Below, piece after piece: positions 3,244 through 16,376 of a DNA stretch of 24,000 nt (the first letter of the stretch is position 1; the number at the start of each line of letters is the position of its first letter). The notes below the pieces were generated by a model. That model made no database searches and was not told where the DNA came from. It was given only the letters and a program-made list of their open reading frames with translations. Made by a program: the position numbers and the translations under genes. The DNA comes from Flavobacteriales bacterium 34_180_T64 (GTDB lineage Bacteria > Bacteroidota > Bacteroidia > Flavobacteriales > Flavobacteriaceae), in NCBI GenBank assembly GCA_002162765.1, contig MAAR01000012.1, positions 155,199 through 179,198 of the forward strand, in the 5' to 3' direction.

Positions 3244-6069
3244 ATGAAAACAATACTTAAAATTTCAATGCTGTTTTGTTGTGTCTTTACTTTTGGACAA
3301 ACTACAGTAAAAGGTAAAGTATCCGACAATAACGGGCAACCTTTACCAGGTGCAAATATTATTGTCGTTGGTACTACAACAGGAACTATTTCAGATTTTG
3401 ATGGTAACTATACGTTAACTGTAGATCAAGACCCTCCATTTTCAATTACTGTAAGTAGTGTCGGTTTTGACTCAGTAACTCAAGAAGTTACTATGAATAC
3501 CCAAACACTAGATTTTGTTTTAGTGGAAGGAACCTCATTAGATGAGGTAGTAATCTCAGCGTCTCGTACTCCTGAACGTATTTTTGAATCTCCAGTAACT
3601 GTTGAACGATTTGGACTTAAGGAAATAAAAAATACGGCTTCTGCTGATTTTTATGATGGACTTGAAAACTTGAAAGGGGTAGATATTAATGTAAATAGTT
3701 TAACATTTAAATCTATTAATACTAGAGGTTTCGCAACGTTTGCTAATACACGTTTCATGCAGCTAGTTGATGGAATGGATAACTCTGCTCCTGCACTTAA
3801 CTTTCCATTAGGAAATTTATTAGGTATGACAGAAACAGACATTCTAAGTGTGGAGTTATTACCTGGTGCTGCATCTGCCTTATATGGTGCAAATGCATTT
3901 AATGGTATCTTGTTTATGAGAAGTAAAAGTCCATTTGATCATACTGGAGTTAGCGGTTATGTGAAACAAGGATTGACCTCCCAAGAGGCAGCTGGTGATA
4001 ATAATTATACTGATGTAGGTATAAGAATGGCCTATAAATTTAGCGATAAGTTTGCTGCTAAAGTAAATTTCGGATATTTAAAAGGTACCGATTGGGTTGC
4101 TGAAAATACCATGGACAAAAGAAACAATGGTTTTACAAGAGCAAATCTAGATTACGATGGTGTTAACGTTTATGGAGATGAAGTATTTGCAAATATTAAA
4201 GGGGTAGCTGAAATTCTAGAGGAAACTTTAGATGCTACTGGTAATCCAATATTGCCAGCTGGAGCAAATGCCTTAGTGCCTTCTGTTGACGTTAGTAGAA
4301 CAGGTTATAATGAGGCTGACTTAACAGACTATAACGCCGAGAGTATTAAAGCAGATTGGGGCTTATATTTCCGTCCTTGGGCTGATGATTTTGAAATCCA
4401 GTATGTTGGGAAAATTGGTTCTGGATCTACTATCTATCAAGGCGCGAATAGATACGCAATCGACGATTTCTTTCTGCAACAACATAAAATAGAAATCAAA
4501 AACGATAATTTCTTCCTAAGAGGATATGTTACTGAAGATAAAGCTGGTGATTCATACGATATGGTATTTACAGGTGTGAATATTAATAGAGCGTGGAAAG
4601 ACGACAATACTTGGTTTGGCGAATATGTAGGAAACTATGTTGCAGCAACATTAGGTGGTGCTACAAATGATCAGGCACACGCTGTAGGTAGAGCAGTTGC
4701 GGAAACCGGCCGTTTTGAACCAGGATCTCCTGAGTTTGAAGCTGCATTTAATAGAAGTATTAATGACCCTAGTTTATTAACAGGGTCAAAATTTCAAGAT
4801 AATTCGAAAATTTATCATGGTGATGGAAATTATAATTTAAGTCATCTTATTGATTTTGCTGAAATCCAAGTTGGTGGATCGTATAGACAATACCAATTGA
4901 ACTCTTTTGGAACAATCTATACAGATAATGATGGACCAATTAAATATTCAGAAGTTGGTTTTTATACGCAAATTCAAAAATCGCTGGAATTATCAGAAAG
5001 TGTGGATTTAAAATTGACTGGTTCTGTACGTTATGATAAATCTGAATTATTTGATGGTTTCTTTTCACCGAGACTATCTGCTGGATTTACTGTAAATAAT
5101 AATCATAACATTAGAGCTTCTTTTCAAACAGGTTTTAGAAATCCAACGACTCAAGATTTATATATAGGACTTGATGTAGGTAGAGCCATCTTAGTTGGTG
5201 GTGCTCCAGATAATCCAGCACGTGATATTAGAAATTATGGTTTAAGTGCAACCGGACAAGCGTTGTTAGGTAGTCCTTCAATTAATTTCTCTGGTGAAGG
5301 TGCTTATAATAATTCATTCACGGCGAGTTCTGTTGCTGATGGTTTTGCTAATACTGGTAATCCAGCAGATTTGGAAATTGCAAACTCGAGTTTAGCTCAA
5401 CCAGAACAAGTAACTTCAATTGAAGTTGGATATCGTGGAAAATTAAATAAAGTTATCGTAGATGCGTCTGCTTATTACAACTCTTATAAAGATTTCTTAT
5501 CTAACGAAACCGTAATTGCTCCTTTTTATGGAGATGTACAACTGGAGCAAAATGTTCCTGGTACTTCAACGCCTCTTGCTATTGCAGCAATTGCGAATAA
5601 TGATTACCAAGTGTATCAAACTTATACCAATACAGATGCCGATGTGAGCTCCTATGGGGCTGCAATAGGAATATCTGCAAAAGTTATGAATGGTTTTGAT
5701 CTAGGATTTAATTATACCTATTCAAAATTAGATTTTGATCAGGAGGCTAATCCAGATTTTCAAACCAACTTTAATACGCCAGAACATAAAGTGAAAGCTT
5801 CGTTTGGAAAAACAGAATTATTTAAAAATTTTGGTTTCAATGTGGCCTGGAGATGGTCTGACACGTATGAGTGGGAAGCTTCATTCGCTAATGGAGATGT
5901 ACCAGCTTACCACGTTATGGATGCACAAATTAATCTTAGAGTTCCTAGTTTAAAATCGCAGTTTAAAGTTGGTGCTACCAACTTATTACAAGATGAATAT
6001 TTTACAGCTGTAGGAACAGGACTAATAGGTTCGATGTATTATGTATCATGGACTATCAATAACTTATAA
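3244..6069 (+). CDS. TonB-dependent outer-membrane receptor with N-terminal carboxypeptidase-regulatory-like domain
   Basis: 941 aa. Signal peptide MKTILKISMLFCCVFTFGQ. CarboxypepD_reg-like segment (TVKGKVSDNNGQPLPGANIIVVGTTTGTISDFDGNYTL). Plug-like segment (LDEVVISASRTPERIFESPVTVERF). Long Gly/Tyr/Asn-rich barrel with an aromatic-rich C-terminus (MYYVSWTINNL). Preceded by a 214-nt AT-rich intergenic region. Confidence 0.85.
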   Translation: MKTILKISMLFCCVFTFGQTTVKGKVSDNNGQPLPGANIIVVGTTTGTISDFDGNYTLTVDQDPPFSITVSSVGFDSVTQEVTMNTQTLDFVLVEGTSLDEVVISASRTPERIFESPVTVERFGLKEIKNTASADFYDGLENLKGVDINVNSLTFKSINTRGFATFANTRFMQLVDGMDNSAPALNFPLGNLLGMTETDILSVELLPGAASALYGANAFNGILFMRSKSPFDHTGVSGYVKQGLTSQEAAGDNNYTDVGIRMAYKFSDKFAAKVNFGYLKGTDWVAENTMDKRNNGFTRANLDYDGVNVYGDEVFANIKGVAEILEETLDATGNPILPAGANALVPSVDVSRTGYNEADLTDYNAESIKADWGLYFRPWADDFEIQYVGKIGSGSTIYQGANRYAIDDFFLQQHKIEIKNDNFFLRGYVTEDKAGDSYDMVFTGVNINRAWKDDNTWFGEYVGNYVAATLGGATNDQAHAVGRAVAETGRFEPGSPEFEAAFNRSINDPSLLTGSKFQDNSKIYHGDGNYNLSHLIDFAEIQVGGSYRQYQLNSFGTIYTDNDGPIKYSEVGFYTQIQKSLELSESVDLKLTGSVRYDKSELFDGFFSPRLSAGFTVNNNHNIRASFQTGFRNPTTQDLYIGLDVGRAILVGGAPDNPARDIRNYGLSATGQALLGSPSINFSGEGAYNNSFTASSVADGFANTGNPADLEIANSSLAQPEQVTSIEVGYRGKLNKVIVDASAYYNSYKDFLSNETVIAPFYGDVQLEQNVPGTSTPLAIAAIANNDYQVYQTYTNTDADVSSYGAAIGISAKVMNGFDLGFNYTYSKLDFDQEANPDFQTNFNTPEHKVKASFGKTELFKNFGFNVAWRWSDTYEWEASFANGDVPAYHVMDAQINLRVPSLKSQFKVGATNLLQDEYFTAVGTGLIGSMYYVSWTINNL

Positions 6070-10358: not shown

Positions 10359-10904
10359 ATGTATGACAATATAATTGTATCTGAAAGTGACAGACCAATT
10401 TGGCAAATTCCAGTTGCGGCATTTCTATTTACTCTTGCTTTAGCTTTAATTCTGAGAGCTTTTTATCTTAATGATTGGTCTTATCATGATGTAATCCTTT
10501 TAACAGAAGATTTCAAGCATTCTTCTTTGTTAGCAGCAGTTGGTGTTGGGTTTTGTTCTCAAAAACGAATTTATATTGATTTAATCAATTCCAAAATTAA
10601 ATCAGCATTTGAAATAGGCCCTCTTAAGTTTGGAAAATGGCAAACGATGAAGAATCTAGAATACGTATCCGTTTTTCATAGACCTAAAGAAAATGGTAGT
10701 TATGCTTTCGAAGTAAATCTTTGGTATGAAAAGGTTAAACGCATTGAACTTTATGAAAGAGACAACTATTTCGAGGCCTTTAAAATTGGGTTTAATGTAT
10801 CAGAAGGATTAAATATAGACTTATTAGACGCAACTGTTGCACACCAAAGTACGTGGGTAGATAAAGACAAGTGGAAACGAAAAATGAATGATGAAAATTC
10901 CTAA
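10359..10904 (+). CDS. Hypothetical 2-TM membrane protein, bio-locus paralog A
   Basis: 181 aa. Two hydrophobic segments (IPVAAFLFTLALALILRAF; SSLLAAVGVGF), then a soluble domain. Clear paralog of 16413..16892, sharing IDL..K, GKW, EY[VI]SVF, NL[WF]Y, K.IE.Y, AF, SE.LNID[LI]LDAT. Its stop overlaps the bioF start by 14-17 nt. Confidence 0.7.
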   Translation: MYDNIIVSESDRPIWQIPVAAFLFTLALALILRAFYLNDWSYHDVILLTEDFKHSSLLAAVGVGFCSQKRIYIDLINSKIKSAFEIGPLKFGKWQTMKNLEYVSVFHRPKENGSYAFEVNLWYEKVKRIELYERDNYFEAFKIGFNVSEGLNIDLLDATVAHQSTWVDKDKWKRKMNDENS

Positions 10905-12033
10905 AAAGCTACAAACCAAAATTGACCAACGTGTTAAAGAAGATGCACTACGCCAACTTGGTGAACACAGTAATATCGTGGATTTTGCTTCTAACGACTA
11001 TTTAGGATTTTCAAAATCAAGAACCATTTTTAATAAAACTCATGATTATCTTGTTGGACATGATTGTTTGCAGAATGGATCAACCGGTTCTCGCTTATTA
11101 TCCGGAAACCATCCTTTATATACAACTTTAGAAAGCATCCTTTGTGAATTCCATAATAGTGATTCAGCTTTGGTTTTTAATTCTGGTTATGATGCCAATT
11201 TAGGATTCTTTTCTTCGGTACCTCAACGCAGTGATCTCATTTTATATGACGAGTATATTCACGCTTCCATAAGAGATGGGATTCAACTTTCAAATGCAAA
11301 AGCTTATAAGTTTAAGCACAATGATATTGAGCATTTAATCTTACGTCATTCTGAACTTGTTTCAGAATCTCATCAACATATTTATATCGTGACAGAATCC
11401 GTGTTTTCTATGGATGGTGATTCACCTGATTTAAAAGGGTTCGTCGAATTCTGCAATCAAAATGACTGTTTTTTGATTACTGATGAAGCACATTCCGTTG
11501 GAGTTCACGGTAAAAACGGCATCGGTTTACTGCAAGATTTAAATCTAGAAAAAGATGTATTTGCTAGAATTATAACCTTTGGAAAAGCTTTGGGCTCGCA
11601 TGGTGCTGCAATTCTATGTCATGAAGATTTGAAGTCCTACTTAGTCAATTTTGCCCGCTCGTTTATTTATACCACAGCCTTAACTCCTCATACATTAGCA
11701 ACAATTTCGACTGCCTATAATGAAATGTTGATGACCTCTGCATTAGAAAAACTGCAGCAAAACATCAAGTTTTTCAATACTGAAATTAAACGACTCAACC
11801 TAAAACAGTTCTTTATTCAAAGTACTTCGTCTATACAATCATGTGTGTTGTCAGGAAATGAAACTGTGAAAACTATTGCTGAAAAATTACAGGTTCTAAA
11901 TTACAATGTGAAGCCTATTTTATCCCCTACAGTTCCCAAAGGAGAAGAACGCTTACGATTTTGTTTACATTCTTATAATTCTGAGAAAGAAATGACTGAA
12001 GTTTTAACCATGTTAGCTACTTTTGTGTTATAA
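10888..12033 (+). CDS. bioF: 8-amino-7-oxononanoate synthase
   Basis: 381 aa class-II aminotransferase-like. GSTGSRLLSGN, IVTESVFSMDGD, ITDEAHSVG and the PLP-lysine context TFGKALGSHGAAI. Start could be the second ATG at 10891. Carries an in-frame copy of the 31-nt hairpin element at 11344-11374. Confidence 0.9.
   Translation: MMKIPKKLQTKIDQRVKEDALRQLGEHSNIVDFASNDYLGFSKSRTIFNKTHDYLVGHDCLQNGSTGSRLLSGNHPLYTTLESILCEFHNSDSALVFNSGYDANLGFFSSVPQRSDLILYDEYIHASIRDGIQLSNAKAYKFKHNDIEHLILRHSELVSESHQHIYIVTESVFSMDGDSPDLKGFVEFCNQNDCFLITDEAHSVGVHGKNGIGLLQDLNLEKDVFARIITFGKALGSHGAAILCHEDLKSYLVNFARSFIYTTALTPHTLATISTAYNEMLMTSALEKLQQNIKFFNTEIKRLNLKQFFIQSTSSIQSCVLSGNETVKTIAEKLQVLNYNVKPILSPTVPKGEERLRFCLHSYNSEKEMTEVLTMLATFVL
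11344..11374 (+). repeat. 31-nt hairpin repeat, copy 1 (inside bioF, in frame)
   Basis: CGTCATTCTGAACTTGTTTCAGAATCTCATC. Stem ATTCTGAA/TTCAGAAT (11348-11355 / 11361-11368), loop CTTGT. Translated in the bioF frame as RHSELVSESH. Confidence 0.85.
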
Positions 12034-12042
12034 TCTTTTTAA

Positions 12043-12420
12043 ATGAAAGACAGCCATACCGTTTTAGCCGTATTTGAATATTCAACTGAAGCTCAAATCA
12101 CTAAAACTAAATTAGAATCTGAAGATATAAGAGCAATTTTGGCTGACGAAAAAACAATCGATACAGATCCATTATTAAGTCAAGCAATTGGTGGTGTCAA
12201 ATTATTGGTTCATAACGATGATTTCGATAAAGCTGTAAAAATCTATAACGATATAAGAGCCTATAGAAAAGATGTAAATGGAAATGAGGTACATTGTGTA
12301 AATTGTAATTCTACTCGGGTTTTAATGGCGCCGCCTAACCGTAAAAAATTCTTATATATGTTATTCCCTTTTTTCGAAAAAAGTAAAAATATGTGTAACG
12401 ATTGTAAAACTATATTCTAA
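12043..12420 (+). CDS. Hypothetical protein: DUF2007-like N-terminal domain plus C-terminal CxxC...CxxC zinc ribbon
   Basis: 125 aa. The N-terminal ~70 aa resemble the small 'putative signal transducing' DUF2007 fold pattern (my recollection). The C-terminus has CVNC (x30) CNDC. Starts 9 nt after the bioF stop, and its TAA abuts the bioD ATG. Confidence 0.55.
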   Translation: MKDSHTVLAVFEYSTEAQITKTKLESEDIRAILADEKTIDTDPLLSQAIGGVKLLVHNDDFDKAVKIYNDIRAYRKDVNGNEVHCVNCNSTRVLMAPPNRKKFLYMLFPFFEKSKNMCNDCKTIF

Positions 12421-13029
12421 ATGAAGCGCATATTTGTAACTGGTATTTCTACAGATGTTGGTAAAACTATTGCTTGTGCAATACTTACAGAAGCCCTTAA
12501 AGCGGATTACTGGAAGCCTATACAAGCTGGAGAATTAGAATCTTGTGACACAAAAAGAGTTCAGCAATTAGTGGCAAACAAAATTTCAAAATTTCATCAA
12601 AATTCATATGCATTACATACTCCTATGAGTCCTCATGCGGCGGCAGATATTGATGGTATTTCGATTGATTTAAAATCTATTAAACCGCCAAAAACTAAAA
12701 ACCACTTGATTATTGAAGGTGCAGGCGGATTATTGGTACCAATAAATGACACTCAAACAGTTTTGGATATAATGGAACCTAATTCAAAAGTGATTGTCGT
12801 TTCAAGACACTATTTAGGTAGTATAAACCATACCCTTTTAACGGTTAACCTTCTTAAAGAAAAAGGTTTTGACGTGTCAATTATTTTTAGTGGTGATGAA
12901 CACGAAACAACAGAAGATATAATTACAAAAATGACCAACGTGCCAATTATTGGCCGTATAAATGAAGAGCCTTACTTCGATAAAAATGTTGTTAAGGAAT
13001 ATGCAGAATTATTCAAAGAAATGTTATAA
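12421..13029 (+). CDS. bioD: Dethiobiotin synthetase
   Basis: 202 aa. P-loop VTGISTDVGKT, EGAGGLLVP motif, size and context. Confidence 0.9.
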   Translation: MKRIFVTGISTDVGKTIACAILTEALKADYWKPIQAGELESCDTKRVQQLVANKISKFHQNSYALHTPMSPHAAADIDGISIDLKSIKPPKTKNHLIIEGAGGLLVPINDTQTVLDIMEPNSKVIVVSRHYLGSINHTLLTVNLLKEKGFDVSIIFSGDEHETTEDIITKMTNVPIIGRINEEPYFDKNVVKEYAELFKEML

Positions 13030-13030
13030 T

Positions 13031-13061
13031 CGTCACACTGAACTTGTTTCAGTGTCGCATC
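13031..13061 (+). repeat. 31-nt hairpin repeat, copy 2
   Basis: CGTCACACTGAACTTGTTTCAGTGTCGCATC. Stem ACACTGAA/TTCAGTGT (13035-13042 / 13048-13055), loop CTTGT. Begins 1 nt after the bioD stop. Confidence 0.85.
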
Positions 13062-13068
13062 ATAATTT

Positions 13069-13347
13069 ATGAAATCTAGTTATGTTTACATATTAACCAA
13101 TCCATATAGAACTACATTTTATATTGGAGTAACAGACAATTTACATAAAAGATTAGAAGAACATTACGATGAAACTGCTTCAAAATTTACTAAAAAATAC
13201 AACATTAAAGATTTGATTTATTTTGAAAATTTTACTGAAATAGAACAGGCGATTGCAAGAGAAAAACAATTGAAAAATTGGCATAAAGCATGGAAATTGA
13301 ATTTAATTAAAACATTAAATCCAACTTTAAAAACTTTAGATTATTAA
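13069..13347 (+). CDS. GIY-YIG nuclease-family small protein (COG2827/UPF0213-like)
   Basis: 92 aa. YVYILTN...FYIGVTDNLHKRLEEH...FTKKY...LIYFE...AIAREKQLKNW matches the GIY / YIG / R / E signature order of the small stand-alone GIY-YIG proteins. Confidence 0.9.
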   Translation: MKSSYVYILTNPYRTTFYIGVTDNLHKRLEEHYDETASKFTKKYNIKDLIYFENFTEIEQAIAREKQLKNWHKAWKLNLIKTLNPTLKTLDY

Positions 13348-13362
13348 ATTTACAATACAAAT

Positions 13363-13393
13363 AATGAGATGCTGAAACAAGTTCAGCATGACG
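13363..13393 (-). repeat. 31-nt hairpin repeat, copy 3 (inverted)
   Basis: Reverse complement reads CGTCATGCTGAACTTGTTTCAGCATCTCATT. Stem ATGCTGAA/TTCAGCAT (13369-13376 / 13382-13389). It supplies the ATG used by the ORF track as the bioA start. Confidence 0.85.
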
Positions 13394-13404
13394 AACGACC
13401 AACA

Positions 13405-14670
13405 ATGACATTACAAGAGAGAGATAAAAAACACCTCTGGCATCCCTTGACGCAACATAAATTGCATCCAGATCATATTGCAATCACAAAAGCTAAAGGA
13501 TGCATGTTGACTGATGAAAACGGGAGATCCTATATTGATGCTATCGCTTCTTGGTACACTTCAATGTATGGGCATTGCAATTCGTATATCACTTCTCAGG
13601 TTACTGAACAAATGCAATCTCTGGATCAAATTGTTTTCAGTGGATTTACACATGAGCCCGCCATTCAATTGAGTGAAGCGCTTATTAAAATACTCCCTGA
13701 AAATCAAAATAAAATTTTCTTTAGTGATAATGGTTCAACTAGTGTTGAGATTGGAATAAAAATGGCATTGCAATTTCATTTCAACAATCATGAAAAGAGA
13801 AATACTTTAATTGCTTTTGAAGATGGGTTTCATGGGGACACATTCGGAGCCATGAGTGTTTCCGGATTGTCCGTTTATAATGGCCCTTTTGAAGACTATT
13901 TTTTAGATGTTAAACGGATTCCTACACCTAATGGAAAGAATCATGATTTTATTTTAGATGCGTTAAAATCCATAACTGAATCTCACAAAGTGGCAGGTTT
14001 CATTTATGAGCCTTTAGTTCAAGGTGCGGCGGCAATGAAAATGCATAATACCGAAGGATTAGATTTAATATTGAAATTTTGTAAAGACCATAAAATCATT
14101 ACTGTTGCTGATGAAGTTATGACAGGATTTGGTAAAACTGGCCGTAATTTTGCATCGGATTATATGTCGAATAAACCTGATATTATATGCTTGAGTAAGT
14201 CGTTAACAGCTGGATTATTACCAATGGCAATTACGTCCTGTTCTCAAGAAATTTACGAAGCTTTTTATAGTGATGATATAAGTAAAGGATTGTTTCATGG
14301 GCACACCTACTCTGCTAATCCATTGGCTTGTAGAGCAGCAATAGCAGGCATTGAATTATTACAATCTGAAGAAATTCAAGAAAACATCAAACGTATTATA
14401 GCATCTCATCGCAGGTTCGATGAACGCATAAAAAACCATTCGAAAGTAAAATCAACACGTCAAACAGGAATTATTTTCGCATTAGATTTAAACATTGAAA
14501 TGGAGCGCTATGGAAATTTACGAGACAAACTCTTCAATTTCTTTATGAACAATGGCGTGTTTTTAAGGCCACTTGGAAATACAATCTATATTCTAGCGCC
14601 TTATGTGATTAGTGAAACTGAATTGAAAAAAGTGTATGCGGTTATTGAAGAGGCTTTAAATACCTTCTAA
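13405..14670 (+). CDS. bioA: Adenosylmethionine-8-amino-7-oxononanoate aminotransferase
   Basis: Class-III aminotransferase. LWHPLTQH near the N-terminus, DEVMTGFGKTG, and the PLP-lysine context ICLSKSLTAG. I place the start at ATG 13405 (MTLQERDKKHLWHP). The track start at 13369 adds MLKQVQHDERPT, which is simply the translated hairpin repeat. Confidence 0.9.
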   Translation: MTLQERDKKHLWHPLTQHKLHPDHIAITKAKGCMLTDENGRSYIDAIASWYTSMYGHCNSYITSQVTEQMQSLDQIVFSGFTHEPAIQLSEALIKILPENQNKIFFSDNGSTSVEIGIKMALQFHFNNHEKRNTLIAFEDGFHGDTFGAMSVSGLSVYNGPFEDYFLDVKRIPTPNGKNHDFILDALKSITESHKVAGFIYEPLVQGAAAMKMHNTEGLDLILKFCKDHKIITVADEVMTGFGKTGRNFASDYMSNKPDIICLSKSLTAGLLPMAITSCSQEIYEAFYSDDISKGLFHGHTYSANPLACRAAIAGIELLQSEEIQENIKRIIASHRRFDERIKNHSKVKSTRQTGIIFALDLNIEMERYGNLRDKLFNFFMNNGVFLRPLGNTIYILAPYVISETELKKVYAVIEEALNTF

Positions 14671-15201: not shown

Positions 15202-15209
15202 TATTTTTG
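15202..15209 (+). promoter_or_regulatory. Candidate -7 box (TAnnTTTG) for the second bio sub-operon
   Basis: TATTTTTG. Its terminal TTG is the very codon the ORF track uses as the KAS start (15207), so either the box or that start is wrong. Confidence 0.3.
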
Positions 15210-16376
15210 TCAAAAGAAAAAACCTTGCTTAAACCCATATCGATTACCGCCATAGCTGCTATTTCTCCCTTGGGAAATTCTTTAGATGAGGCTTGGGAAA
15301 ATTATAAAAACAACGCCCATTTTATTTCTGAAAAACAATTTTCAACTCAGCGTGTATTAATTTCGGAATTGTCTAATGAAGTACAGGCTGAAATAGAAAT
15401 TTTGAGACAATCTGAATCAAAATATAAAGCACTTGATAATTCAGTACTTTATGCCATATACACCTCTAGAAAAGCCGTAAAACAGGCAAATTGGAATTCT
15501 GAAGATCAATTTGGAATTAATATTGGATCTTCAAGAGGCGCAACACAGCTTTTCGAAACATATCATGAAGCATATCTCAAAAATAAAACCTCACACCCAT
15601 TAAGTTCCCCGACTACAACACTAGGTAATATTTCATCTTGGGTGGCCCATGATTTAAATTCTAAAGGACCTGAAATCAGTCACTCAATTACATGTTCCAC
15701 TGCCTTACATGCTATGCTTAATGGTATTGCCTGGATTAATGCTGGCATGTCTGACAAGTTTTTAGTTGGAGGAAGTGAAGCACCATTGACTGGCTTCACA
15801 ATTGCACAAATGCAGGCCTTAAAAATTTATGCAAAACACACTACAGATTATCCATGTCGAGCGTTAGATTTTTCAAAAAATGAAAATGAGATGGTTTTAG
15901 GTGAAGCCGCTGCTTCAGTTTGCCTAGAACAGGGTGAAACAAAAAATGCTTTGGCTGTAATTAAAAGCTTTGGATATGCTACCGAATTATTGGAACATAA
16001 CGCATCTTTATCAACTAATGCTATCTGTTTTCAGCGTTCCATGACAATGGCTTTAGGAGACATGGATCCCGCTTCAATTGATGTTATTGTTACACACACT
16101 CCAGGAACAATAAAAGGAGATATTTCTGAACATAATGCTATTAAAACTGTGTTCAAAAATAAAATTCCATCACTTACAAATAACAAATGGAAAATTGGTC
16201 ATAGTCTTGGAGCATCCGGTTTGACGAGTATTGAAATGGCCATTCTCATGTTGAAACATCAAGAATTTATAGGGGTTCCTTTTTGCAATGAACCGAAACC
16301 AAAAAAACTTCAAAACATTCTAATAAATGCAGTTGGTTTTGGTGGAAATGCGGTGAGTATTCTAATATCTAAATAA
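15207..16376 (+). CDS. Beta-ketoacyl synthase, KAS I/II (FabB/FabF)-like, embedded in the biotin locus
   Basis: 389 aa. Cys-His-His set in FabF-like contexts: GPEISHSITCSTALHA (Cys), VTHTPGTIKGD (His), NNKWKIGHSLGASG (Lys/His). C-terminal NAVGFGGNAVSILISK. No in-frame ATG near the 5' end; candidate starts are TTG 15207 or TTG 15225. Confidence 0.8.
   Translation: MSKEKTLLKPISITAIAAISPLGNSLDEAWENYKNNAHFISEKQFSTQRVLISELSNEVQAEIEILRQSESKYKALDNSVLYAIYTSRKAVKQANWNSEDQFGINIGSSRGATQLFETYHEAYLKNKTSHPLSSPTTTLGNISSWVAHDLNSKGPEISHSITCSTALHAMLNGIAWINAGMSDKFLVGGSEAPLTGFTIAQMQALKIYAKHTTDYPCRALDFSKNENEMVLGEAAASVCLEQGETKNALAVIKSFGYATELLEHNASLSTNAICFQRSMTMALGDMDPASIDVIVTHTPGTIKGDISEHNAIKTVFKNKIPSLTNNKWKIGHSLGASGLTSIEMAILMLKHQEFIGVPFCNEPKPKKLQNILINAVGFGGNAVSILISK

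Follow-up and report, generated by a model that had tools for sequence, protein, structure and literature searches.

Why should three short, nearly identical hairpins lie so close together in a single bio operon, and why do two of them face each other across a small nuclease gene? The question is raised by a 24,000-nucleotide (nt) stretch of the genome of Flavobacteriales bacterium 34_180_T64 (contig MAAR01000012.1, positions 155,199 to 179,198; this whole stretch is hereafter called the window), in which an initial annotation had described a 31-nt repeat with compensatory changes in its stem. We hold, with good confidence, that the three hairpins are CGTC-tagged repetitive extragenic palindromes (REPs), in the class of the NTS/dRS3 elements and of the Ssn-related motifs (SRMs); that copies 2 and 3 bracket an Ssn-family gene in the NTS-ssnA-NTS architecture and probably work through the nicking of single-stranded DNA; and that copy 1 is an old copy carried in frame. 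This explanation is supported by the exclusion of chance, the covariation of the stem, the CGTC REP architecture, the association of gene and hairpin, the homology of the gene product to NTS-flanked proteins and the conservation of catalytic residues. The starting observation is correct and is largely accounted for by published work on CGTC REPs (2013) and on Ssn and its motifs (2025). The new points are modest, namely a subtype that is invisible to the published SRM search, its stable residence in bio and his operons within the Flavobacteriaceae, and the conservation of an intragenic copy at its synonymous sites.

A hairpin family with a covarying stem

How firmly do the three copies stand apart from chance? 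Both strands of the window were searched with the pattern CGTCANNCTGAACTTGTTTCAGNNT at up to three mismatches, with 100 dinucleotide-preserving shuffles as the control. Exactly three matches were returned, at 11344(+), 13031(+) and 13393(-), against a shuffle expectation of 0.00, and the coordinates, strands and sequences of the three copies are those first reported. Each copy combines an 8-bp stem (an A, the variable dinucleotide, then CTGAA) with the 5-nt loop CTTGT. The variable dinucleotides and their partners (TT/AA, CA/TG, TG/CA) are exact complements across the three copies, and minimum-free-energy folding yields the expected hairpin in all of them (-6.8 to -11.3 kcal/mol), so that sequence and folding both bear out the compensatory stem that the initial annotation had described. 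Its further claim of constant flanks and a constant loop holds for the CTTGT loop but less so for the 3′ tail, TC[T/G]CAT[C/T], which is nearly, not strictly, constant. A generic finder (GTC followed by an 8–9 bp stem and a 4–6 nt loop) detects these three copies and nothing else in the 24 kb, against a mean of 0.05 perfect hits on the shuffles.

Three copies by themselves make weak evidence of covariation, and it is because of the copies outside the window that the evidence becomes strong. Outside scans used the pattern CGTCANNNNGAACTTGTTTCNNNNTC, which leaves four stem pairs free. It recovered 100 copies in 88 contigs of IMG/VR (31–72% GC) and at least 164 copies in at least 120 loci of the genome collection; the genome counts given below are those among the matches listed. 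The motif is present in at least 10 bacterial phyla. Sphingomonadales predominate among the genome matches, and the Bacteroidota are represented by Pedobacter, Mucilaginibacter, Chitinophaga, Polaribacter, Tenacibaculum, Lacinutrix, Christiangramia, Salegentibacter, Muricauda, Roseivirga, Draconibacterium, Prevotellaceae and Muribaculaceae. Further carriers are Ignavibacteriota, Treponema, Sulfurovaceae, Endomicrobium/Elusimicrobia, Patescibacteria, Dadabacteria, Melainabacteria and Heliobacteriaceae. As a negative control, a pattern one T shorter gave 19 matches (L001–L019) with no stem complementarity, as chance would.

At the four positions that the pattern left free, the pairs are fully Watson–Crick in 151 of 164 genome copies and in 91 of 100 viral-contig copies, and they are so in several alternative forms: among the genome matches, pair 1 occurs as T-A (114), C-G (41) or A-T (6), pair 2 as C-G (74), G-C (72), T-A (13) or A-T (2), and pair 4 as T-A (150) or C-G (11). 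A formal count drew on 144 distinct sequences, some of them loop and stem variants that had come to light without the pattern; as this set had been prefiltered for at most one stem mismatch, its percentage of paired positions is circular, unlike that of the pattern-free positions. Both-sided changes occur in six of the eight stem pairs, and the double-change cells number 147 against 39 ± 5 in column shuffles, with none of 500 shuffles reaching 147. The covariation score is 0.361 against 0.141, and a one-column shift of the register makes the pairing in this set collapse. The covariation of the hairpin stem is real. The wider pattern search and the tabulation of covariation that the initial annotation had proposed thus turn up further copies in quantity, with a stem that covaries in them, where a want of further copies or of covariation would have spoken against it.

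Does this mean that selection acts on the folded structure rather than on the primary sequence, as had been suggested? The first half of that statement stands on the covariation, the second does not, as strong constraint falls on the primary sequence too. From one phylum to another, in genomes of 31% to 72% GC, the CGTCA tag, the inner stem and the CTTGT loop hardly vary; across the wider set the tag always has G2, T3 and C4, and its first base is C or T. Such near-identity fits sequence-specific recognition by a protein and not recognition of structure alone. The 5′ flank is free of information, and in the 3′ flank information is confined to a short Y-A-T tail. Past the stem, the family as a whole has C, Y (information content 0.82), A (0.46) and T (0.26) in turn, with C-CAT in high-GC copies. 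Close pairs among the genome matches are nearly all +/- inverted dimers, with spacers of 10–87 nt, and the gene-less convergent dimers, which are common, have a modal spacer of 39 nt.

The base that follows CGTCA is T in 115 of the genome matches, C in 43, A in 6 and G in none, and therefore the complementary strand always reads ATG, GTG or TTG, then ACG. We considered whether this strand provides a start codon for a leader peptide and rejected the idea, as the frames in the window stop after 1–7 codons and are not conserved. For annotation the pattern matters, since an ATG, GTG or TTG on the complementary strand of CGTCAN invites spurious starts of open reading frames (ORFs) in the hairpin. 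ORF callers do begin ORFs there, as in the window, where the called bioA start at 13369 falls within copy 3, and in two alphaproteobacteria (L209, L226), whose ssn genes acquire 'MLNLFQHP...' extensions.

The bracketed GIY-YIG gene and its published relatives

Copies 2 and 3 form a convergent inverted pair that encloses a GIY-YIG gene, the only ORF of this kind in the window (Table 1). The fit is tight: copy 2 begins 1 nt past the bioD stop codon, with its far end 7 nt short of the ssn start, and the inverted copy 3 begins 15 nt past the ssn stop and ends 11 nt before the bioA ATG. A check on the proximity of hairpins to GIY-YIG genes had been proposed with the initial annotation, and it comes out positive at this locus and at homologous ones alike. 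All GIY-YIG homolog loci that were sampled independently of the hairpin have family hairpins adjacent to the gene, usually on both sides, and both-sided inverted hairpins were found at 13 other homolog loci. The tally takes in five metagenome bio loci, eight loci of named genomes, two of them in a his operon, and one viral contig. Gene and hairpins occur together in metagenomic bio loci (L236, L238, L253, L258), in the bio operons of Algibacter mikhailovii, Tenacibaculum sp. Bg11-29, Spongiivirga citrea, Mangrovimonas aestuarii and Jejudonia soesokkakensis, in the his operons of Flagellimonas nanhaiensis and Muricauda sp. CAU 1633, and on one viral contig (L108). Even in Alteriqipengyuania abyssalis and Sphingobium terrigena, where identity to the window Ssn falls to 45–49%, the gene stands between copies of the same hairpin core at a spacing of 351 nt. 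By comparison, 407 kb of related bio regions without the gene yielded five family-type hits, two of which are the intragenic bioF copy and three of which are weak. Read in the other direction, the association is sparse, with a nearby GIY-YIG gene at 1 of the 88 viral and 6 of the at least 120 genome loci that had been selected by hairpin. This is as expected if hairpins far outnumber ssn genes; the direction from gene to hairpin is the informative one, and it is positive.

Table 1. Positions of the hairpins, the module that two of them delimit, and the adjoining genes, in window coordinates
Feature	Position	Strand	Remarks
bioF (8-amino-7-oxononanoate synthase-like aminotransferase)	10888..12033	+	Pfam Aminotran_1_2, E=1e-39; hosts copy 1
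Hairpin copy 1	11344..11374	+	CGTCA-TT-CTGAA-CTTGT-TTCAG-AA-TC-TCATC; within bioF, in frame
bioD (dethiobiotin synthetase-like, AAA_26)	12421..13029	+	Left neighbour of module
Hairpin(+)-ssn-hairpin(-) module, 363 nt	13031..13393		CGTCA...TGACG outer ends; between bioD and bioA
Hairpin copy 2	13031..13061	+	CGTCA-CA-CTGAA-CTTGT-TTCAG-TG-TC-GCATC; left arm of inverted pair
ssn-like gene, 92-aa single-domain GIY-YIG nuclease	13069..13347	+	Pfam PF01541, E=1e-14
Hairpin copy 3	13363..13393	-	CGTCA-TG-CTGAA-CTTGT-TTCAG-CA-TC-TCATT (minus strand); right arm of inverted pair
bioA (class III aminotransferase)	13405..14670	+	Right neighbour of module; true start ATG 13405

The GIY-YIG domain spans residues 4–78 of the ssn product, which has no other domain and is 100% identical to a database entry (P0001) named 'endonuclease [Flavobacteriales bacterium 34_180_T64]'. 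Homologs are 85–116 amino acids long, mostly 92, among the best 120 of 3361; Ssn proteins are delimited as single-domain GIY-YIG proteins of about 94 and at most 150 residues, and the window protein lies within that size. Seven residues are invariant in a cross-phylum alignment of 13 sequences (A1), namely Y7, Y18, G20, R28, H32, E65 and N84, so that the catalytic set of two Tyr, Arg, His, Glu and Asn is intact, and a C-terminal REKQLKxWxRxWKxxLI motif is common to it as well. As stand-ins for SsnA of Neisseria we took proteins that are flanked by the exact NTS motif in viral contigs (L364, L387). The exact NTS scan of these contigs located GIY-YIG ORFs adjoining NTS, among them a canonical NTS(+)-gene-NTS(-) unit in L364, and the window protein is 39–43% identical to the NTS-flanked proteins over 92–97% of its length (E 1e-25 to 5e-28). 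If these may stand in for SsnA itself (CAX49033.1), the window protein would lie within the blastp limits for the family (E<1e-10, at least 75% coverage). NCBIfam offers no specific model, and a search of the PDB returned no solved SsnA structure, the nearest chains being the UPF0213 proteins 1ZG2 and 1YWL. The scan also recorded the exact Neisseria NTS in more than 120 IMG/VR contigs (among L313–L431), some of them with arrays (L322 has at least 8 listed sites, 13 counted) and some of high GC (64–69%) with NTS-flanked GIY-YIG genes. For both motifs, many of the IMG/VR matches probably come from pieces of bacterial chromosome or from the flanks of prophages.

To which known class do the hairpins belong? 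The superfamily of CGTC-tagged REPs was delineated by an unpaired CGTC, sometimes TGTC, followed by stems of 8–9 bp with A and T in the first two positions, loops of 4–5 nt and a short 3′ tail, unpaired and in most cases CCA (Di Nocera et al., BMC Genomics 2013; PMC3733652). Its members occur mostly as inverted dimers with 20–100 nt spacers, are concentrated in Alphaproteobacteria, and are found also in Bacteroidetes (G. forsetii), Chlorobi, Spirochaetes, Thermotogae and Sulfurovum. They include CGTC-2 in N. aromaticivorans, a type prevalent in Sphingomonadales, as well as the Neisseria dRS3 and the Rickettsia RPE-4/-6. Some copies of the superfamily are intragenic, and the authors found no associated transposase (PMC3733652). 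The window hairpins agree with this description in most respects. The CGTC tag is present in all three, and the family-wide C or T at its first base matches the TGTC variants. The first stem base is A in copies 1–3 and the second T in copies 1 and 3, with C in copy 2. The tails (C-TCA, C-GCA, C-TCA) are similar to CCA, not identical, and the 8-bp stem and 5-nt loop are those of CGTC-2, an assignment made by these lengths and not by sequence match. Inverted dimers likewise dominate among the genome matches of the present hairpin, and these matches fall in the same taxa. What sets the window repeats apart is their tie to a GIY-YIG gene.

It is this tie that leads to the Ssn system. NTS (CGTCATTCCCGCGMAVGCGGGAATCYRG), a longer form of dRS3, is bound and cut by SsnA, a 94-residue single-domain GIY-YIG protein of CDD family cd10448 that accepts only single-stranded DNA, cuts only the NTS strand, upstream of the motif, and leaves double-stranded DNA and RNA uncut (Chenal et al., Nat Commun 2025; PMC11893778). 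Of the ssnA homologs in the various phyla, 71% have an Ssn-related motif on one side at least and 42% on both, and the authors noted that the NTS-ssnA-NTS layout is insertion sequence (IS)-like (PMC11893778). When NTS is set beside the window hairpin (CGTCATTCTGAACTTGTTTCAGAATCTCA), both have an unpaired 5′ CGTCA, a stem opening with T, a short loop and a 'TC' exit, and in both systems a single-domain GIY-YIG gene of about 92–94 codons is bracketed by inverted copies. The SRM definition specifies a hairpin-forming inverted repeat of 20–50 nt, with a conserved and oriented sequence upstream of it, on both sides of an Ssn gene, within 500 bp, and copies 2 and 3 are such repeats. The differences are those of subtype and setting. 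The window stem is AT-rich (CTGAA/TTCAG) with a 5-nt CTTGT loop, that of NTS GC-rich (CCCGCG) with a 4-nt loop; the window host is a free-living marine member of the Flavobacteriales, neither symbiont nor pathogen; and the window has a low local copy number and a module inside biosynthetic operons. A second comparison, with the REPIN/RAYT systems (Nunvar 2010; Bertels & Rainey 2011; Ton-Hoang 2012), discloses tagged short hairpins, inverted doublets, a single-copy nuclease gene flanked by inverted repeats and a recognition of single-stranded hairpins that is thought likely. There, however, the tag is GTAG, not CGTC, and the enzyme is an HUH Y1 transposase, IS200/IS605-like and unrelated to GIY-YIG. 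The resemblance is architectural only, and the window elements fall outside that group. Of the two categories that the initial annotation had put forward, a REP-like or miniature inverted-repeat element and a nuclease recognition hairpin, both find support in the CGTC REP architecture and the bracketed GIY-YIG gene.

The mechanism that we propose is likely by analogy with the experimentally characterised homologs. Whenever the DNA turns single-stranded, be it in replication, in repair or as incoming transforming or conjugative DNA, the strand reading CGTCA would fold into an 8-bp stem with a 5-nt loop. Ssn would recognise this stem-loop together with the unpaired 5′ CGTC tag and nick the same strand a few nt upstream; the complementary strand, double-stranded DNA and RNA would not serve as substrates. 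Compensatory changes in the stem would be tolerated because the protein needs a paired stem, and the tag, the inner stem and the loop would be read by sequence and hence stay near-invariant across phyla. Three sites are predicted for the window: on the plus strand one within bioF and another immediately past bioD, on the minus strand a single one ahead of bioA. Copy 1 would now be translated as a linker peptide, with its recognition hairpin still intact.

Several points weigh against this account. First, the published SRM search string, HGTCWYN(0-2)YYVSBRHN(0-5)WNVSBRGN(0-2)RNCYNB, which matches NTS as its positive control, has no match in the window, where each copy shows at least six mismatches at the best choice of gaps, and matches none of 242 distinct contexts of the present hairpin subtype (loci L020–L228). 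Second, the putative membership of the protein in the Ssn family was gauged through the surrogate NTS-flanked proteins. Third, in the about 28 kb of the source genome that were viewed, the three copies all lie in the bio operon, and the hairpin may be no high-copy REP in 34_180_T64. Finally, the operon is co-transcribed and copies 1 and 2 lie in its sense strand, where they may have an additional effect at the level of RNA. The first of these has a ready explanation, since the string derives from hairpins with GC-rich stems and 4-nt loops; the window hairpin is of the same class and architecture as the SRMs, in a subtype outside their published operational definition. The core of this subtype, GAACTTGTTTC, occurs in at least 10 phyla, and in Flavobacteriia and Sphingomonadales it flanks Ssn homologs; as the string misses it, the reported 42–71% association of Ssn genes with their motifs is probably an underestimate. 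The window Ssn and its hairpin make a ready candidate pair for a new specificity in the cutting of single-stranded DNA.

In an independent Logan assembly of the same organism (SRR3580189), a 14.4-kb contig (L438) ends at window position 13365, within copy 3. Such a break is consistent with a repeated or palindromic k-mer breaking the assembly graph, and it hints at repetition.

The copy inside bioF

How did a recognition hairpin come to lie within a coding sequence, and how long has it been there? Copy 1 is read in frame as the peptide RHSELVSESHQ, part of a variable linker that immediately precedes the conserved VTESVFSMDGD motif. The same element stands at the same codons in the bioF orthologs of L238, L252, L258, L242 and L246 (e.g., CGCCATTCTGAACTTGTTTCAAAATC, CGTTATTCTGAACTTATTTCAGAATC), and because the in-frame element is common to these orthologous genes, copy 1 is old and not a recent transposition. 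In the carriers, the 26-nt element (window 11344–11369) is identical to the window copy at 23–24 of 26 positions, at a DNA identity of about 64% across bioF, and the identity at third codon positions is 0.88–1.00 in the element against 0.44–0.48 across bioF. In non-carriers, the linker is among the least conserved parts of bioF (7–11 of 26). These figures suggest that copy 1 either is constrained at the nucleotide level or has been re-homogenised from other copies by gene conversion. An in-frame copy that is conserved at synonymous sites across genera offers a clean natural test of selection on such hairpins at the DNA level.

The element is not intact in every ortholog. It is decayed in L239 and L257, about 54 nt stand in place of the loop in L255, and it is absent from many orthologs (L230, L233, L234 and L243 among them), whose linkers are unrelated and of similar length. 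In a neighbour-joining tree, itself weak, the carriers are patchy within one clade. The interrupted loop of L255 has a counterpart in Jejudonia (L437, about 1490–1550), where a 27-nt GC-rich palindrome, CCTGCCTGCCAAGGCACGACAGGCAGG, lies within the loop of the hairpin downstream of ssn. On the basis of these two cases, the hairpin loop may be a preferred point of insertion or breakage.

There is precedent for a copy of this kind in the in-frame CGTC REPs, such as RPE-4/-6 of Rickettsia (PMC3733652). Like these, copy 1 is an in-frame palindromic insert that is translated as an extra peptide in a tolerant region. Unlike these, it is a single 31-nt monomer in one gene, common to several orthologs, in a linker that is not appreciably lengthened; Rickettsia has numerous RPEs, and in the survey of Di Nocera et al. 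the intragenic inserts are in many cases dimers or clusters.

Operon junctions, mobility and competing explanations

Is the hairpin-ssn-hairpin module a mobile element, and if so, does it still move? Among 80 related bio operons, the common state is bioD followed directly by bioA, with stop and start overlapping (...TTATGACA...) or within about 10 nt of each other. In at least 32 of the 80, bioA lies within 60 nt of bioD and the module is missing, a lower bound, since the classifier files some bioA-adjacent loci (L242, L246) as 'other gene after bioD'; four relatives and the window carry the module. Its position between bioD and bioA, at a length of about 360 nt, is common to six genera. A second residence is found in the his operon of Flagellimonas nanhaiensis and Muricauda sp. 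CAU 1633 (L312, L433), where the module stands between a DUF1572/DinB-like gene and hisF and its protein, 70–72% identical to the window Ssn, is again bracketed by family hairpins. Bio-operon junctions in relatives harbour other elements too: between bioD and bioA, L255 has a gene-less convergent dimer of another CGTC-type hairpin (e.g., TGTCATTCCTAGAAAGTAGGAAATC, with a 5-nt loop), L257 and L252 have decayed remnants, and in L235 (3463–3485) a single hairpin of another CGTC type, CGTCATCCTAAACAGTTTTAGGATG, with a 4-nt loop, lies between bioF and bioD. The module has thus long resided at operon junctions, and its distribution is patchy. In Flavobacteriaceae it is a stable passenger of bio and his operons and may be no high-copy genome-wide repeat, which would differ from the Neisseria picture and bear on the role of Ssn outside naturally competent pathogens.

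These data are compatible with mobility and do not demonstrate movement. One proposal would have the module be an active or recently active mobile element, with the hairpins as its terminal inverted repeats, Ssn as the mobilising nuclease and the gene-less dimers as non-autonomous derivatives, by analogy with RAYT and REPIN. It concerns origin and spread and is compatible with our explanation of the hairpins as Ssn recognition sites; we keep it as a tentative possibility, well short of an even chance. It draws on the presence or absence of the module at the orthologous bioD-bioA junction, the occupation of a different operon in Muricauda and Flagellimonas, the frequency of gene-less convergent dimers at a modal spacing, the L255 dimer of another type at the same junction, the near-identity of hairpins from at least 10 phyla and a wide range of GC, and the IS-like architecture that the Ssn authors had noted (PMC11893778). 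Yet no target-site duplication was visible when the boundaries of the module were inspected, the shared position in six genera suggests long residence, strand transfer is not a known activity of Ssn, and Di Nocera et al. found no transposase with the CGTC REPs (PMC3733652). The one close pair that differs in the presence of the module, L258 with it and L252 without, also speaks against the proposal. The two are 95.5% identical until about position 4083 of each, some 35 nt before the bioD stop, and then about 73% identical through bioA, so that a clean excision footprint was rejected, as was a clean insertion, in favour of an allele replacement by recombination with its breakpoint at the element. 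The switch in identity beside a hairpin recalls the reported link of dRS3/NTS to the divergence of adjacent genes in Neisseria.

A more specific version of the idea is more doubtful still. Here the module would be an autonomous mobile element working through single-stranded DNA, of a class not yet demonstrated: Ssn would mobilise it, the hairpins would be its ends and the dimers its progeny, it would lodge by preference between translationally coupled biosynthetic genes (bioD|bioA, DUF1572|hisF), and the bioF copy would be kept as a functional Ssn target, which could mark the bio locus for nicking of incoming or replicating single-stranded DNA. This version draws on the polymorphism of the junction, the two operon positions, the recombination breakpoint, the spread across phyla and the conservation of the coding copy, none of which demonstrates movement or function.

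Alternatively, the hairpins might act in the RNA of the bio operon, a classical proposal for REPs, as a stabiliser, a processing site, an attenuator or a terminator that tunes bioF, bioD, ssn and bioA. Copies 1 and 2 are indeed sense-oriented in a unidirectional operon, copy 2 directly follows the bioD stop codon, a typical REP position, Di Nocera et al. argue that many REPs are transcribed (PMC3733652), and the RNA folds are moderately stable (z-scores -1.8 to -4.1). We nonetheless consider such a role unlikely as the principal one. A Rho-independent terminator was rejected for the sense copies, which have no U-tract after them (copies 1 and 2 continue as CTCATCAAC and CGCATCATA); the terminator scan flags only the antisense copy 3, and its two finds in all compare with a shuffle mean of 1.7. 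Whatever the transcript, one partner of an inverted dimer is always antisense to it. Among the genome matches G-T mismatches are as rare as C-A mismatches, with four of each, and therefore give no sign of an RNA-type tolerance of wobble pairs on one strand. The conservation of the loop and of the unpaired CGTCA across phyla suggests a protein that reads sequence, and SsnA does not bind RNA (PMC11893778). Rfam has no family at gathering score anywhere in the window and, at E up to 10 in 10500–14500, no match at the locus, the only hit being a chance one to IS009 elsewhere.

A reading of the GIY-YIG protein as a free-standing homing endonuclease, with its double-stranded homing or target site in the hairpins, is highly improbable, even though GIY-YIG is a classic fold of such enzymes, the best NCBIfam match, to 'group I intron endonuclease', is weak and below threshold (25.8 bits, cut-off 56) and the distribution of the module is patchy. 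The protein is a single 92-residue domain with no DNA-binding extension, the context is neither that of an intron nor of an intein, and the hairpins flank the gene where homing would ask for an uninterrupted site in empty alleles; the empty bioD-bioA junctions are without such a sequence. A local duplication or a chance likeness confined to this locus, which the placement of all copies within 2 kb and of none elsewhere in about 28 kb might have suggested, is already refuted by the hundreds of copies in unrelated genomes, by a chance expectation of zero and by the different compensatory stems, which rule out a recent duplication of one copy from another.

The setting of the locus is otherwise that of an ordinary chromosome in a low-GC (34%) member of the Flavobacteriales. 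The genes run in the order glmS, TonB-dependent receptor, GDSL lipase, atpD, atpC, GNAT, an ORF of no assigned family, bioF, a DUF2007 gene, bioD, the GIY-YIG gene, bioA, a Coa1-like gene, a ketoacyl synthase, a further ORF of that sort, bioB, cupin, DUF6646 and recX, and a tRNA scan of the window found none. Three members of the bio cluster are unusual, namely a 181-residue ORF with no Pfam match that overlaps the bioF start (10359–10904), the DUF2007 gene between bioF and bioD (12043–12420), which is kept in many relatives, and a FabF/FabB-like ketoacyl synthase between bioA and bioB (15207–16376). They may have a tie to the supply of pimelate.

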